Origin: a virus
IMG/VR virus record: IMGVR_UViG_3300044991_002272
Length of the DNA stretch: 64,000 bases
Reading direction: 5' to 3' (one strand)
Shown: positions 15,554 to 59,755 of the stretch, piece after piece
Position numbering within the stretch: the stretch's first letter is position 1
Layout of the letters: every line of letters begins with the position of its first letter
Translations under genes and position numbers: made by a program
The notes under the pieces: generated by a model
Databases searched by the model: none
What the model was told of the DNA's origin: nothing
Seen by the model: only the letters and a program-made list of their open reading frames with translations

Positions 15554-15821
15554 AAAAGTGCAACCGCTTCTGTTCCAAGGAGGGTTGCCCTCCCGCTGAG
15601 ACTATGCGGCTATTAGACCGGTAGACTCAAATGCAACGTTGTTGTCGTTAGCATTTGTACGTTTAGAACTGTTCCCATCTCTGGGCGGCCATATCTCACC
15701 GAATGCCTCCTTCAACCCTTACTGCCTGCAATCGATCCTATTTCATCCCCGTTTGGTGGAGATGCGGAAGCACTGCCCTCCCGGTCTTGCATAGCCTATT
15801 TGATTGCTATCAACAGCATCA
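15554..15821 (-). ncRNA. ssrA: two-piece (circularly permuted) tmRNA
   Basis: Order: T-arm CGGGAG-GGCAGTG-CTTCCG, 3' acceptor strand CATCTCC-ACCA (15764-15754), AAC, then 5' strand GGGGATG (15750-15744) with G3.U70; tag ORF 15652-15602 = ANDNNVAFESTGLIAA*. Confidence 0.93.
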
Positions 15822-15827
15822 CTTCCT

Positions 15828-15855
15828 AGTATATCAGGTATTCTTCAGTTGTCAA
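15828..15855 (-). promoter_or_regulatory. sigma70 promoter of tmRNA
   Basis: TTGACA-N16-TATACT with extended -10 TG. Confidence 0.8.
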
Positions 15856-15858
15856 CCA

Positions 15859-16698
15859 TTAGGTTGGTGGTGTGCCAAATTGTGCCACGGGTGACCCCTG
15901 TTGTGCTGCGGCAAGACAGGGATTCACTCCGGAAACACTGCGACTGAAGCCAGATGCAAATCCAGATGTTAATGCTGTTGTGATATTTTGTGTTTCGCGA
16001 GCTACTGCTCCTGTAACTTGGCTTATACCAGCGCCAATGGTGCCTAGCAAGCTGCTGACCCCACTTATGGCGCCAGTGAGTACTCCCACAGCACTCCTTA
16101 CAACTCCAGCAGCAGCTTGTACAACAGCAGAAATGCCACCCACAACTGCCCCAATCAAGCCAGAAATGGCAGAGGTTATAGCCCCAATTATGCGTGCAGG
16201 GATACTTACAAGAGCTCCTACAAATTGGCCTATAGCACTAGTAATAGATCCCAATGTGTCGTTGTATCGGCCTTGTATGGTTCCTATGTAATCACCAACA
16301 GTAGCACACCTACTGGGATCTTGTGCTCTACCTGGTTGAAAAAAGTCATTTATTGCCCGAAATATTCGCGTACCGTCATCCACAATCCTGTCTCTATGAC
16401 TTGCCAACAGTGTGCCAAAGCCGCCTATTTGGCCAACAGCTTGCAATGGTCCCAAGCTCTGTTGCACTGCCCTCTGAGCGTCAGGATCATTGGCTGCGGC
16501 TGCTTGTGCAGCTTGTATAGCATCATTTATAGCTACTACTTGAGGTTGATTAGCATCTTCGTTAATCTGTCTAACCAATCGATCATAGGCCGGATTGACT
16601 CGAGGTGGTGGTAGATCCTCAATTTGTATACTCGCTATTTCATTAGGGGTTGCTATGACATTGAAGGCCACATACCCGCCGTCTCGCTCACCAGCCAT
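15859..16698 (-). CDS. Gly/Ala/Ile-rich hypothetical protein, probably late/virion
   Basis: 279-aa ORF; GGAGA SD; TTAAATA at 16727-16721. Confidence 0.7.
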   Translation of the reverse strand: MAGERDGGYVAFNVIATPNEIASIQIEDLPPPRVNPAYDRLVRQINEDANQPQVVAINDAIQAAQAAAANDPDAQRAVQQSLGPLQAVGQIGGFGTLLASHRDRIVDDGTRIFRAINDFFQPGRAQDPSRCATVGDYIGTIQGRYNDTLGSITSAIGQFVGALVSIPARIIGAITSAISGLIGAVVGGISAVVQAAAGVVRSAVGVLTGAISGVSSLLGTIGAGISQVTGAVARETQNITTALTSGFASGFSRSVSGVNPCLAAAQQGSPVAQFGTPPT

Positions 16699-55663: not shown

Positions 55664-55975
55664 ATGAACAAAGTTTTGATGTTTGATAACCCAAATGATT
55701 TTTTGACCCATTTGAAGAACTCATTAGAGAAGGAAAACACACTGTCCCAGACTGAATTGATCAGCTTACTAAAAGGCAGTGTGAGTGCTTTAGAGCAGCT
55801 TTGGACAAGTCAAAATATCTTGGTCACCAAAATGGCAGAAACTGTTGACTGTCTCAACAGGCATGATGAAAGCTGGGGCCATAAGCTAGCCCAGCTCTAC
55901 ACTGTGTTGGAATGTGGCCAAGTATCTCCAGATGAGATGGAACAGATCTTGCGGGATGAAGTCTGTGGGAGTTAG
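55664..55975 (+). CDS. hypothetical protein
   Basis: 103 aa; sigma70-like promoter upstream. Confidence 0.55.
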   Translation: MNKVLMFDNPNDFLTHLKNSLEKENTLSQTELISLLKGSVSALEQLWTSQNILVTKMAETVDCLNRHDESWGHKLAQLYTVLECGQVSPDEMEQILRDEVCGS

Positions 55976-56424
55976 AGCGCAATATCATTCATACCCACAG
56001 ACCTAAGGCGTATGATATTGTTAAGTTGAAAACCCTTGATCTCCATTGACTTGATTACACCAAGATACTTGTTGCGAATCAATGCCACCTCATTCACTAG
56101 ACTCATCATTGTTTGAACATCAGCCTCGCCATCAATGTATTTTTCAATGGCGCGGTCACTCAATTCTCTGTTGTAGCGTTCGAGATAGCGACGATAAAAG
56201 TCGCTTCTCATTTTGTCCACTTGGTTGTTGAGATGTTTCAACACAGCCTCAATCTCTTGCAGTTGACTGAAACGCCAACTTACCTGACCTGGCAGCTCTT
56301 GACTGTTTTTTTCAAGGCTGCCAAAAACCTTGCACTCTTTTTGAGCAACCTCGAGCTCATTGTTGTAGTAGTCCACCATATCAGGAATTTGCGATAGGTC
56401 GTTTTTTACTCTGTTAAACCACAT
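55972..56424 (-). CDS. uvsY: UvsY-like recombination mediator
   Basis: Helical; IEKYIDGE..LGVIKSMEIKGFQLNNIIRLR. Confidence 0.75.
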   Translation of the reverse strand: MWFNRVKNDLSQIPDMVDYYNNELEVAQKECKVFGSLEKNSQELPGQVSWRFSQLQEIEAVLKHLNNQVDKMRSDFYRRYLERYNRELSDRAIEKYIDGEADVQTMMSLVNEVALIRNKYLGVIKSMEIKGFQLNNIIRLRSVGMNDIAL

Positions 56425-56435
56425 GACAATTGATA

Positions 56436-56669
56436 CTAGCAGTCGTCGTCTACGTCAACATCTCCATAGAGTTCATCAAGGGCAGAATCAAGGCTGTCAT
56501 CTGCACCACGCAGTGAGTCAAGATCATGAATCTCCACATCATTTTCTTCAAAAACACTGATGAATTCCAGTGCCACATCGTCTCGCTTGCCAGCTGGAAT
56601 CAAGTCCTTGACTGTTTCCCAAAGCTCTGCAATTAGTTTTGCATCAATTTCCATTAGTTTGATCTCCAC
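56436..56669 (-). CDS. small acidic protein
   Basis: 77 aa; TTAAATA at 56690-56684. Confidence 0.7.
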   Translation of the reverse strand: MEIKLMEIDAKLIAELWETVKDLIPAGKRDDVALEFISVFEENDVEIHDLDSLRGADDSLDSALDELYGDVDVDDDC

Positions 56670-56693: not shown

Positions 56694-57539
56694 TTACTTG
56701 GGTACAAATTGGCCGCAACTTGCATATACGTCTTGACCAACTTTCGGAATAATCTTACAGGGCATATATTGCTGGATTTGTGCAGCTATGTCATCCACCC
56801 GTAGACTTTCTTCACCCTGTTGACTGCTATAGGGATTGTATCTCACAATGTTGAACTCACTGTGAAAACCATAAGTTTGAATCAAGTTCATCATCTGTGC
56901 AATATCTTCTTCACTGTCGTTTTCACCGCGTATAAATGCTGAATGAAACTTAACTATCTTTTTGGAAACTTTTTGATATTCCTTCAGATTATCCAGGGCA
57001 CGCTCTACTGGCATCGCTGCTGGTAACCATTTGTTTCTAAATGAAGAATTTACTGAATAAATGCTAAAATAAATTGTGGGCCCAATAATAGGAAACACAT
57101 CACACAAGCTTTTTTTCAAAGTCACTGGCATAATAGTGCTGATATTGAACTTGGGTCGTAGAGAATGATCCTGTGCCCTATTGCCCAGTCGCCAAAGAAG
57201 TTCTGCGCCAGTGTTGATAATTGTGGGATTGGCAAGTGGCTCTCCCCGGGCCATGAAATTCAAGTGCACTGTTTGCGCAGGAGTGTCTTTTTCATAATGA
57301 GACAATACAGTTTCAAACTGACTGACAAAATTACTTTGGTCCAGATTCGAAAATTGTGTTTGTTTGGTTGCAGTGAGATGACACATTTGGCATCCACGGT
57401 TACAGCCAGTTTGTGAACTGAGATACGCGATGAAATAGTCAGCTTGACGTCTTACATAACGCGACTCAATAAATCCTGTCAGCTGTTGCTCAACAAAATT
57501 TACACTCGCATCCAGTTGCGAGTTGATCTGTTGTAACAT
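56694..57539 (-). CDS. RlmN/Cfr-like radical SAM protein
   Basis: YLSSQTGCNRGCQMC, MARGEP, ISTI, GEND, RYNP, ASCGQ. Confidence 0.88.
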   Translation of the reverse strand: MLQQINSQLDASVNFVEQQLTGFIESRYVRRQADYFIAYLSSQTGCNRGCQMCHLTATKQTQFSNLDQSNFVSQFETVLSHYEKDTPAQTVHLNFMARGEPLANPTIINTGAELLWRLGNRAQDHSLRPKFNISTIMPVTLKKSLCDVFPIIGPTIYFSIYSVNSSFRNKWLPAAMPVERALDNLKEYQKVSKKIVKFHSAFIRGENDSEEDIAQMMNLIQTYGFHSEFNIVRYNPYSSQQGEESLRVDDIAAQIQQYMPCKIIPKVGQDVYASCGQFVPK

Positions 57540-57556: not shown

Positions 57557-57748
57557 TTAACGGGATTTGGGCGAAGGTAGTTTTTTTTGACCAAAGTTAC
57601 AATGTTTTTGTACCACTGGGTCATACTTCTTCAGACGCAACTTTTCACTAGACTTTGCACCTTTTGTAGTAACATGCGTCATGTATTTGGTTGGTGTATC
57701 ATGGTCTTGATTTACCAACATTACAATTACGGTTGCTGCTTTTGCCAT
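57557..57748 (-). CDS. rpmG: ribosomal protein bL33 homolog
   Basis: MAKAATVIVMLVN..EKLRLKKYDPVVQKHCNF; AGGAGA SD. Confidence 0.85.
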   Translation of the reverse strand: MAKAATVIVMLVNQDHDTPTKYMTHVTTKGAKSSEKLRLKKYDPVVQKHCNFGQKKLPSPKSR

Positions 57749-57802
57749 CCTGTGTCTCCTGCTATGCGTGATTATATATGGCAATCAGCTCAAAACAATG
57801 AA

Positions 57803-57823
57803 AGCGGGACATTTTGTCCCGCT
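57803..57823. terminator. hairpin/terminator after uvsX
   Basis: AGCGGGAC-atttt-GTCCCGCT. Confidence 0.6.
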
Positions 57824-57847
57824 CTTTGCACTGCTATGTATTGGAAG

Positions 57848-58942
57848 TTATGATAGATCTTCTTCAGGCTCTTGAACTTCAATATCTTCTAACACAGGGG
57901 CAATTTTGCTTAGCTTCTGATGGAACTCATTCATTATTTGATCAAGACATCCATCTTCATTGCGATCCCAAGCTTTTTCAAACTGCTTGATCTGTGTGCC
58001 ATCCAAACGAGTGTAACACCACTTGTTTCCTTCTTTGACTAACAACCCTTTCTGAACAAACAGGTCATACAAGCCACTGTAGGGGTCCATGCCTCGGTCG
58101 TATGGGATTTTAACCTCAACAGTCTCAAAGGGTTTGTTATATCGCGTCTTCATTACACGACATTGAGCACGGATACCTTTGACGTCCGTTGTCTTGTTGC
58201 CCATCTCATCTTCCTTGAGCTTGAGCTTGCGCATAGCCAACACAATGCTGCTGGCGTAGATGGGGCCTTGCCCACCACTAATGACATCATCTGGATTGAA
58301 CATGTCTTGGCTTGCATAACTGTGGTTTGTGCAAATCATGCCGATATCATATTCACCAAACATGTTAACACAATTTCGCACAAGCGCAGCAAGTGCACGC
58401 GGCTTGCGCCCCATATCACCCTTGAGCTCACCAGCCTCAAATTGATTGACATCAGTTGGAGTTAGGAGCATGCCTAAACTGTCAATCACAAAGAGCACGC
58501 GAGGGCGTTCTTCCTCACTCACGCTGTTGTAACGAGCTTTGTAGTCCTTCATGAAATCTGAGATCAACTTGGCAACATCATCAATCATTGCCAAGTTTGC
58601 CTTCAAAAGCTTGTCCTCAGATGTATCTACATCTAGCGCCTTTAGCCATTTTTCATCTAGTGCATTCTCACTGTCGATCAACACCACAAACACATCTTTT
58701 TTCTGTGCATTAGAGGTTAAGTTTCCTGCTGCTAAAAAGCTCTTGCCACTGCCACTTTGTCCAGCCAGCATTGTTACTTTGCCTAGCGGGATGCCACCGT
58801 CACGGAATCTACCAGAGATAGCATAATTGAGTGCATAGTTGCCTGTTGAGATCCATACCTTGGGATCGCGAAAGCCAACTGATAGTCCAGGAATGCTCTT
58901 GGCAATATCTTTTCTAAATCGGGATAAATCTAAAGGTTTCAT
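57848..58942 (-). CDS. uvsX: RecA/UvsX recombinase
   Basis: GQSGSGKS, IDSENA, VIDSLG, SGGQG, KTR. Confidence 0.95.
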   Translation of the reverse strand: MKPLDLSRFRKDIAKSIPGLSVGFRDPKVWISTGNYALNYAISGRFRDGGIPLGKVTMLAGQSGSGKSFLAAGNLTSNAQKKDVFVVLIDSENALDEKWLKALDVDTSEDKLLKANLAMIDDVAKLISDFMKDYKARYNSVSEEERPRVLFVIDSLGMLLTPTDVNQFEAGELKGDMGRKPRALAALVRNCVNMFGEYDIGMICTNHSYASQDMFNPDDVISGGQGPIYASSIVLAMRKLKLKEDEMGNKTTDVKGIRAQCRVMKTRYNKPFETVEVKIPYDRGMDPYSGLYDLFVQKGLLVKEGNKWCYTRLDGTQIKQFEKAWDRNEDGCLDQIMNEFHQKLSKIAPVLEDIEVQEPEEDLS

Positions 58943-59614
58943 CTATTTTTCCATCTTCTTTTTGTTTAGGTATGCTTGTCGACGAGCCTCTGACCAAAGT
59001 TTTCCTTTATGCGTTTGACTTATCAAGAGTTTACTCTCCTCTGTGTGTTTATAGATATGTCCTTCATGGCCTTTACGAATATTTTCAAGTGCTTGCCCTG
59101 TTCGTTTTGAACCCTTATAGGGGTTCGGCACTCCTTTTTTAGCTGCACTTATATTCTTACCACGTTCGGCTAGTTCTTCAGGAGTCATATTCACTTTGCA
59201 GCCTCTTTTTTGAGATGCAATTTTTTCAACATGTTCTGGACTCTTCTTTTTTCCTTTTGCTGCTAGACTCATTTTCTGTCTTGTTACTGTATTGTGAATC
59301 AACCCATAATTGGATTCTCCACCATCTGTCAGATTATGCAAGACACCAGTGCCGTTATCAAGACGACCCCAAAGCCTAATCAACTTCCTTTCCATGATAA
59401 GTGACCATAGTTCTGATAGATTACAAGCAACTATGACTATTCTCCATTTTTCTTTGGGAACTGGAACTCTATGTCTGCCATGCCAGGCTCTGTCGCCCTT
59501 GCCTTTACCAATATAATACGGTGTTCCTGCCTTACCATTTGCCGAATCTTTGATTCTCAAATAAGCGTAAACGTAATAATCTTCAGACAGAATTGTAGTG
59601 GGATAAATATCCAT
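58943..59614 (-). mobile_element. GIY-YIG-type homing endonuclease with NUMOD3-like repeats
   Basis: YYVYAY..PYYIGKG..R..H, E..LI, N.TDGG; [20 protein letters not shown]. Confidence 0.85.
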
Positions 59615-59683
59615 GCTGTTGCTCCTCATAAGCGATAGAGCTGGTAGGTGTTGCAAGCACCGTGACCAGCAGCATGTATTTAT
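59612..59683 (-). promoter_or_regulatory. late promoter plus start-codon-sequestering structure
   Basis: ATAAATA (59683-59677); CATGCTG (59676-59670) complementary to CAGCATG containing the ATG; inner GCTGGT/ACCAGC stem. Confidence 0.55.
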
Positions 59684-59755
59684 CCACTCCACAAATTATC
59701 ATACCGTCATAGAGAGTTCAAGTAAGGTGACATTGTCACCTTACTCTCAAGTTGA

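Follow-up and report, generated by a model that had tools for sequence, protein, structure and literature searches.

The adenine methylases RlmN and Cfr are the closest described relatives of the protein analysed here. RlmN of E. coli forms m2A2503 in 23S rRNA and m2A37 in tRNA, Cfr forms m8A2503 in 23S rRNA, and 'two conserved cysteines' define enzymes of this type (PMC9692996). In both, a C-terminal cysteine is methylated by S-adenosylmethionine (SAM), a 5′-deoxyadenosyl radical takes a hydrogen atom from this methyl group, and the methylene radical that this leaves adds to adenine C2 or C8 to give a protein–RNA cross-link with an unpaired electron; the second cysteine, C118 in RlmN and C105 in Cfr, then takes the proton at the sp3 carbon, the C–S bond fragments and the thiyl radical is reduced (PMC9692996, PMC13001441). 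RlmN C118A/S and Cfr C105A/S mutants form stable protein–RNA cross-links, and the 5hr7 and cryo-EM structures were obtained by exploiting them (PMC9692996, PMC13001441). In primer extension, Cfr E91A and C105A give the same non-methylated stop (PMC2836569), which argues that this glutamate works with the resolving cysteine. Whether the second cysteine serves as a general base or as a disulfide radical anion partner is still argued, and the argument rests on mutants that merely trap the enzyme on RNA. Here we analyse a gene in a 64,000-nucleotide stretch of viral DNA (the window) from IMG/VR record IMGVR_UViG_3300044991_002272. Its product, P0001, is a stand-alone member of a distinct, widespread subfamily of the RlmN/Cfr superfamily in which tyrosine occupies the position of the resolving cysteine.

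P0001 clearly belongs to the RlmN/Cfr superfamily of class A radical SAM methylases. It matches PHROG 27142 over the full length (E 1.4e-89; residues 4-279, profile positions 8-299 of 300), a group whose label 'Fe-S-cluster redox domain-containing' assigns no function, and it narrowly passes the Pfam model PF04055 (Radical_SAM; 31.5 bits, cut-off 29.5). RlmN and Cfr models are its top NCBIfam matches, all far under cut-off: TIGR00048 (RlmN) scores 64.6 bits against 290 over profile positions 79-342 of 355, and the Cfr models score 52-60 bits against 468-550, including the equivalog models NF000424 (59.8 bits against 530) and TIGR04432 (52.3 bits against 550). An AlphaFold2 model built with 64 relatives as input is compact (pLDDT 96.7) and matches the partial TIM barrel fold of the radical SAM class. 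Foldseek searches with this model rank the RlmN-type chains 6fz6, 5hr7 and 3rfa first (TM-score 0.76-0.81, with 3rfa and 5hr7 at 0.79-0.81), followed by Cfr. Strands at residues 2-39 of the model precede the core and correspond to the RlmN-type beta-extension, and the chain begins there. The HhH2 N-terminal domain, reported to be crucial for RNA binding, is absent from P0001, as the alignments open at TIGR00048 position 79 and at RlmN residue ~87. An earlier note made from the sequence had called the N-terminal domain short; the reduction is real, but 'short' understates it, as the whole HhH2 domain of ~85 residues is gone.

Three independent alignments, by phmmer against Cfr 9p0p, by BLASTP against E. 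coli RlmN (NC_000913) and with a 64-sequence family profile against the PDB, place Tyr39 of P0001 on RlmN C118 and Cfr C105 and place Cys275 on the methyl-carrier cysteines C355 and C338. Both assignments bear out the earlier note, which had proposed that the methyl carrier is kept and the resolving cysteine replaced. At the tyrosine column, the profile reads vYlssq opposite FCISSQ or LCVSSQ, and the distance from the resolving position to the first cluster cysteine is 7 residues in P0001, RlmN and Cfr alike. The motifs quoted in that note are all present with verified codons: IESRY...AYLSSQTGC at residues 24-46, CNRGCQMC at 46-53, MARGEP (residues 96-101) in place of MGMGEP, and ASCGQ at 273-277.

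Tyrosine at the resolving position is a family trait and not an accident of one phage. A word-indexed search returned 1884 relatives of similar length, and an exhaustive search gave 312 clusters (50% identity) at E <= 1e-30. Tyr39 is invariant in about 400 relatives in total, including 116 close relatives and 143 representatives at 38-59% identity, and of 151 additional family genes drawn from 154 viral and cellular loci, 150 have a tyrosine, the sole departure being a wrong motif match in an over-extended open reading frame (ORF). Such invariance across the family argues against chance. The earlier note had raised the possibility of another cysteine at the resolving position, and this is ruled out at the family level: only four cysteine columns are conserved, namely the three cluster ligands and Cys275 (present in 142/143 representatives). 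The extra cysteines C146 and C261 of P0001 vary among relatives, and no fifth cysteine is conserved. In FastTree midpoint-rooted sketches of 50 and 126 sequences, from which the direction of phage–cell transfer is not established, the Tyr clade is monophyletic with a long stem; the alignment and phylogeny that the note had proposed as a check thus find tyrosine fixed across a single clade.

The tyrosine is one of several coordinated changes. We compared 34 clade members with 15 Cys-type relatives, comprising RlmN from four phyla, Cfr, Cfr(C), three cellular paralogs and five truncated phage forms. Five non-conservative switches are fixed in the Tyr clade and found in none of the Cys-type relatives: RlmN K94 to N14, V107 to R27, C118 to Y39, M178 to R98 and H235 to Y161. 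At the M178 column, arginine is present in all Tyr-clade sequences and methionine in 13/15 Cys-type relatives. P0001 carries the whole signature of N14, R27, Y39, R98 and Y161 together with E25 and C275, each present in at least 90% of the clade. Other positions are common to the Tyr clade and the Cys-type relatives, including E25, C46/50/53, M96, G99, E100, S159, R168, N207, G268, C275 and G276; outside the cluster ligands, their RlmN counterparts are E105, M176, G179, E180, S233, R242, N286, G348, C355 and G356. The G268-C275 spacing equals that of RlmN G348-C355, and the loop with which Cfr reads adenine N1/N6 (PMC13001441) keeps its spacing in the Tyr clade. Cluster members of 330-497 aa show no extra Pfam domain, and we found no docking-domain fusions among proteins of 493-2000 aa, a weak form of evidence. 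The clade median isoelectric point of 7.1 is similar to those of the Cfr and RlmN cores and is uninformative on RNA binding.

Tyr-type genes are spread across phages, plasmids and bacterial chromosomes. Cultured carriers include the Pseudomonas phiKZ-like phages 201phi2-1 (gp434), Phabio, Psa21, D6, RVTF4 and Viktualia, the Caulobacter phages CcrColossus (gp283) and CcrPW, and Brevundimonas jumbo phages. IMG/VR yielded 80 loci with a Tyr-type gene, many on 200-465 kb contigs; the nearest virus record available for comparison with the window is a 36-kb fragment without one. Three ~1-Mb Pseudomonas megaplasmids also carry the gene, and chromosomal carriers include complete Polyangiales, Rubripirellula and Pirellulaceae genomes together with many other Myxococcota and Planctomycetota. 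Further cellular carriers are Nocardia, Wenjunlia, Achromobacter, Acetobacter, Acidiphilium, Roseivivax, Pararhizobium and metagenome-assembled genomes (MAGs) of candidate phyla, where some MAG taxon labels, such as an Alcaligenaceae within the Planctomycetota clade, may be due to errors in binning. Sequences from Myxococcota and Planctomycetota fall into a single clade that is nested among phage and megaplasmid branches. Canonical RlmN scores above cut-off in 5/5 cellular carrier genomes tested, indicating that the Tyr-type protein is an extra enzyme with its own task; none of five phage carrier genomes tested has a second RlmN-like gene.

In Myxococcota and Planctomycetota, the Tyr-type gene is part of a conserved cassette. 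At 33 loci an AbiEii/DUF1814 nucleotidyltransferase toxin gene lies immediately beside it, head-to-head in nearly all, with Pfam matches of 1e-19 to 1e-25 and PADLOC matches of 1e-37 to 1e-59. The toxin gene is followed by a gene for a 520-620 aa leucine-rich-repeat (LRR) protein in 31 loci and for a sulfotransferase-like protein in 18; examples are L127:2786-5989 (minus strand) and, likewise, L103, L110, L131 and about 30 other loci. We saw no AbiEi/COG5340 antitoxin gene in the cassette, no Rfam match to a structured RNA between the divergent gene pair, and no PADLOC model matching P0001 or its cellular homologues. DUF1814/MenT toxins add pyrimidines to tRNA 3′-CCA ends and block translation (PMC11375011, PMC7450476, PMC10435456). 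From linkage only, we infer a functional coupling between the Tyr-type enzyme and the AbiEii-family toxin, and the AbiEii–LRR–sulfotransferase cassette may be an undescribed AbiE variant.

Phage copies occur in other surroundings. No AbiEii, LRR or sulfotransferase-like genes were found near them, and their protein neighbours are conserved within lineages, with none conserved across lineages. tRNA genes lie within 10 kb at 28/80 phage loci, and all 211 of these tRNAs are on the strand of the Tyr-type gene. When phages are grouped into lineages at 60% identity, 5/24 have a tRNA within 2 kb and 10/24 within 10 kb. The Tyr-type gene is embedded in a tRNA array at loci L034 and L043, and two complete phages of ~305-315 kb have a single tRNA cluster, 7 kb long, whose end lies ~0.5 kb upstream of it. 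All ten carrier phage genomes tested encode tRNAs, 12-58 each. Related T4-like jumbo phages whose enzyme is 64% identical, one of them on a complete 452.8-kb contig, have one or two CUA-anticodon tRNAs ~2 kb upstream of the gene and away from their main arrays (L025:7871-8026, L032:7871-8026, L027:8150-8224); these are amber suppressors that ARAGORN labels Pyl. Two further settings involve recombination genes. The order uvsX–[bL33]–radical SAM gene–small ORF–uvsY is kept across 14 related T4-like loci, with single flanking genes present in 11-14 (uvsX in 11/14, a homologue of the small ORF in 14). In one jumbo lineage (9 loci; L066:8224-10008, L063:6858-7886), the Tyr-type gene directly follows homologues of SbcD (Metallophos) and SbcC/Rad50 (AAA_23/SMC_N).

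Considering residues, distribution and neighbourhoods together, the reading that we favour, tentatively, is that the Tyr-type enzyme is still a multiple-turnover C-methylase of an adenine in RNA, probably tRNA, working through a Tyr–Glu relay. The strict conservation of the tyrosine and the retention of its glutamate partner favour a rebuilt catalytic site over a lost step. Residues that hold the adenosine in Cfr are mostly kept or conservatively replaced, with N230 for N288, the aromatic Y35 for W101, M96 for M155 and a G268...A273-S-C275 loop, making adenine in nucleic acid the likeliest target. tRNA is probably the nucleic acid concerned: three independent lines, none conclusive, point to it: the family descends from a tRNA/rRNA methylase, phage copies lie next to tRNA arrays, and cellular copies are linked to a toxin that targets tRNA. 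In such a reaction, Cys275 would be methylated by a first SAM, and a second SAM would yield the 5′-deoxyadenosyl radical and then an S-methylene radical that adds to the base. Tyr39, activated by Glu25 and the new arginines, could take the proton and/or return a hydrogen atom to the thiyl radical, resolving the link. Phage enzymes might modify phage or host tRNAs in conflicts over tRNA, and those of Myxococcota and Planctomycetota might be fixed partners of the AbiEii/MenT-type toxin, which is directed at tRNA 3′ ends.

Several observations weigh against a tRNA methylase of this kind. In the complex of Cfr C105A, only 3.6 Å separate the target carbon from the C-beta of residue 105 (PMC13001441), leaving no room for a tyrosine ring unless the base is repositioned; the pocket geometry must therefore have changed, a change that fits the coordinated switches. 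The enzyme lacks the HhH2 domain for RNA docking, and the search of phages turned up no docking partner, fused or otherwise obvious. No tRNA lies within 10 kb of the gene in 14/24 phage lineages, the main tRNA arrays are roughly 10 to 100+ kb away in five large phages, and other contexts are those of recombination genes, uvsX/uvsY in the window lineage and SbcCD in the jumbo lineage. A37 occurs in 151/178 unique neighbouring tRNAs (85%), an ordinary and uninformative frequency. The AbiEii pairing is limited to one monophyletic cellular clade, and the other cellular contexts of the gene are heterogeneous.

Alternatively, the same fold could serve another substrate class or reaction. The remodelled pocket would then bind a free nucleotide, DNA or RNA in single-stranded form, a protein or a small molecule, perhaps together with a partner, for which the LRR protein is a candidate in cells, and the Cys275/Tyr39 chemistry would be other than RlmN-type adenine C-methylation. 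We consider this possible, if rather unlikely. It draws on the five fixed switches in and around the active site (two new arginines and two new tyrosines among them), the loss of the RNA-docking domain, the steric argument from the 3.6 Å C-beta distance, the recombination-gene settings of two phage lineages, the conserved LRR and sulfotransferase-like genes of the cellular cassette and the RlmN already present in cellular carriers. However, most of the residues and loop spacing by which Cfr holds the adenine, ribose and phosphate are conserved or conservatively replaced, other phage clades without HhH2 keep the resolving cysteine, so that domain loss alone implies no non-RNA substrate, and precursor-peptide or biosynthetic genes recur beside the gene in no cross-lineage pattern. 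The broader suggestion in the earlier note, a different chemistry or substrate, gains support from the five-residue signature, the missing HhH2 domain and the canonical RlmN found in every cellular carrier tested.

Tyrosine is a good hydrogen-atom donor, and it could equally be imagined to fix a covalent adduct as to resolve one. The enzyme would then be a deliberate single-turnover cross-linker, akin to the suicide cross-linker of host rRNA or tRNA that the earlier note had offered as an alternative, left on RNA through Cys275-CH2 with a hydrogen atom from Tyr39 stabilizing the adduct, which would itself be the biological product and might inactivate or mark a specific RNA. The stable cross-links formed by the C118A/S and C105A/S mutants (PMC9692996, PMC13001441) give this idea a chemical precedent, and a destructive activity is plausible for cellular copies in an AbiEii toxin cassette. 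We nevertheless judge it improbable: spending one enzyme per RNA molecule is inefficient against abundant tRNAs or ribosomes, the glutamate partner of the resolving step is strictly kept, the family is old and broad and occurs in free-living bacteria alongside a normal translation apparatus, and phage copies beside the phage's own tRNA genes speak for a benign modification. A catalytically dead relic or purely RNA-binding derivative of RlmN is more improbable by far. In its favour are the loss of a residue essential to RlmN and Cfr and scores far under the family cut-offs, but the cluster cysteines, SAM-binding motifs and methyl-carrier cysteine are invariant over 312 clusters (50% identity), the family-specific residues are invariant as well, and the model is compact and confident.

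A more ambitious reading, which as a whole we regard as unlikely, can also be formed. The Tyr–Glu pair would define a new mechanistic class of cysteine-methyl radical SAM enzymes, replacing the resolving thiol by proton-coupled electron transfer or by a deliberate adduct, and the enzymes would act in tRNA warfare: in Myxococcota and Planctomycetota they would give immunity against an AbiEii/MenT toxin directed at tRNA 3′ ends, or be its co-effector, in a form of AbiE that has no AbiEi, and in jumbo phages and megaplasmids captured copies would shield their own or host tRNAs from such toxins or nucleases.

Within the window, the gene starts with an ATG at 57539 and is set in a T4-like phage region (Table 1). 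It follows the gene of the phage ribosomal protein bL33, which has an ATG at 57748, an AGGAGA ribosome-binding site and a stop codon at 57557-57559; the 17-nucleotide gap given in the earlier note is exact, and the two genes are probably co-transcribed. A terminator-like hairpin appears to delimit this unit from uvsX. The adjacency to which the note had drawn attention is real within one T4-like lineage, where bL33 adjoins the radical SAM gene in 9 loci, but it is local to that lineage, as no other has bL33 there. The side also switches, bL33 lying upstream in the closest relatives of the window and downstream in a 66%-identity group (L021:2753-2938, L022:10881-11066). A role of bL33 as substrate or obligatory partner is accordingly unsupported, with the gene adjacent in one lineage only, on either side, and absent in others. 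The small acidic ORF downstream has no family match in Pfam or PHROG searches. No tRNA genes are present in the 64,000 nucleotides. A permuted two-piece alpha-type tmRNA gene at 15557-15869 on the minus strand (Rfam RF04321, 76.5 bits; RF01849, 68.8 bits) suggests that the host is alphaproteobacterial and that the phage carries a trans-translation RNA. Between uvsX and a gp32-like gene, a 249-aa ORF (58943-59692, minus strand) reads like a GIY-YIG homing endonuclease.

Table 1. Features of the Tyr-type radical SAM gene and its neighbours, in window coordinates.
Feature	Position	Strand	Basis or remark
Tyr-type RlmN/Cfr-like radical SAM gene (P0001)	56694..57539	-	intact ORF, 281 aa
Codon of Tyr39 (RlmN C118 / Cfr C105 position)	57423..57425	-	alignments; codon verified
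Codon of Glu25 (RlmN E105 / Cfr E91)	57465..57467	-	invariant in Tyr clade and Cys-type relatives
CX3CX2C motif CNRGCQMC, [4Fe-4S] cluster ligands	57381..57404	-	C46, C50, C53 invariant; PF04055 match
MARGEP, SAM-binding 'GGE' strand, Arg98 for RlmN M178	57237..57254	-	alignments
ASCGQ loop, Cys275 (methyl-carrier C355 / C338)	56709..56723	-	alignments
Phage ribosomal protein bL33 gene	57557..57748	-	PF00471 29.2 bits (cut-off 25); TIGR01023 28.4 (23.95)
Terminator-like hairpin after uvsX	57801..57825	-	11-bp stem, then T-rich tail
77-aa acidic ORF directly downstream of the radical SAM gene	56436..56669	-	same place in 14 loci
uvsX-type recombinase gene	57848..58942	-	sequence read and UvsY match of neighbour
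uvsY-type recombination mediator gene	55972..56424	-	PHROG 231 E 2.6e-16; Pfam UvsY 6e-4

Class A radical SAM methylases have been defined by two catalytic cysteines, and a large natural family of 312 clusters (50% identity) without the second one offers a direct test of what the resolving step needs, and possibly a new reaction. Well-studied jumbo phages such as 201phi2-1 and CcrColossus carry the enzyme with no assigned function, often near tRNA genes, and it may be a missing piece in the large phage–host fight over tRNA. Database records label members as hypothetical, radical SAM, methyltransferase or RlmN, in no case with mention of the tyrosine; the labels RlmN and 23S rRNA (adenine2503-C2)-methyltransferase should be dropped for Tyr-type proteins. 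Our literature search found no paper on the substitution, the signature, the AbiEii pairing or the phage proteins, nor experiments on any member. Kaminska et al. (2010) give no detail on the viral members and the 'additional small subfamily of unknown function' to which they refer.

AbiE and MenAT systems have the DUF1814 toxin in common with the cellular cassette, which differs in its LRR and sulfotransferase-like genes and in having no AbiEi that we could see. Truncated RlmN-like proteins of Vibrio phage 249E41-1, Aeromonas phage Ahp1, Salmonella phage Arash, Xanthomonas phage JGB6 and Tunturiibacter Tunturi_5 resemble P0001 in their size of ~310-350 aa, the lack of HhH2 and the retained CG loop, but they keep the resolving cysteine and the RlmN V, M and H residues and branch separately from the Tyr clade. 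The copies in Vibrio, Xanthomonas, Salmonella and Aeromonas phages (L010:2537-3481, L011:2498-3562, L012:2387-3316 and L013:2474-3424) retain both catalytic cysteines and a GGGCGQLW terminal loop, and that of Xanthomonas JGB6 is labelled 'prohibitin family protein'. Klebsiella phage 05F01 encodes a truncated RlmN-like protein (L008:3929-4858) with valine at the C118 column, a second natural departure from the resolving cysteine; it has a cysteine four residues ahead of the first cluster cysteine (LSCSHGC), and its gene lies between an 'ADP-ribosylation'-annotated gene and anaerobic ribonucleotide reductase genes.

Cfr is the best PDB sequence match of the family (9p0p; family profile E 3e-24) and shares the N-x-[IV]-R-Y-N-P strand and the D-x-x-A-[AS]-C-G loop with P0001, and the sequence analysis gives no indication of activity at A2503 or a resistance function for P0001. 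Cfr has C105 and an N-terminal domain, whereas P0001 has tyrosine and no N-terminal domain. E. coli RlmN, at 22% identity, has the same SAM core, beta-extension and C-terminal loop, and shares the CX3CX2C motif, the GxGE strand and residues E105, M176, S233, R242, N286, G348 and C355, with ASCGQ in P0001 for AACGQ in RlmN and Cfr; RlmN has HhH2 and C118, and P0001 has neither. By the usual definition P0001 thus falls outside both RlmN and Cfr, as it lacks the second cysteine and the HhH2 domain and scores below the cut-offs of both families.

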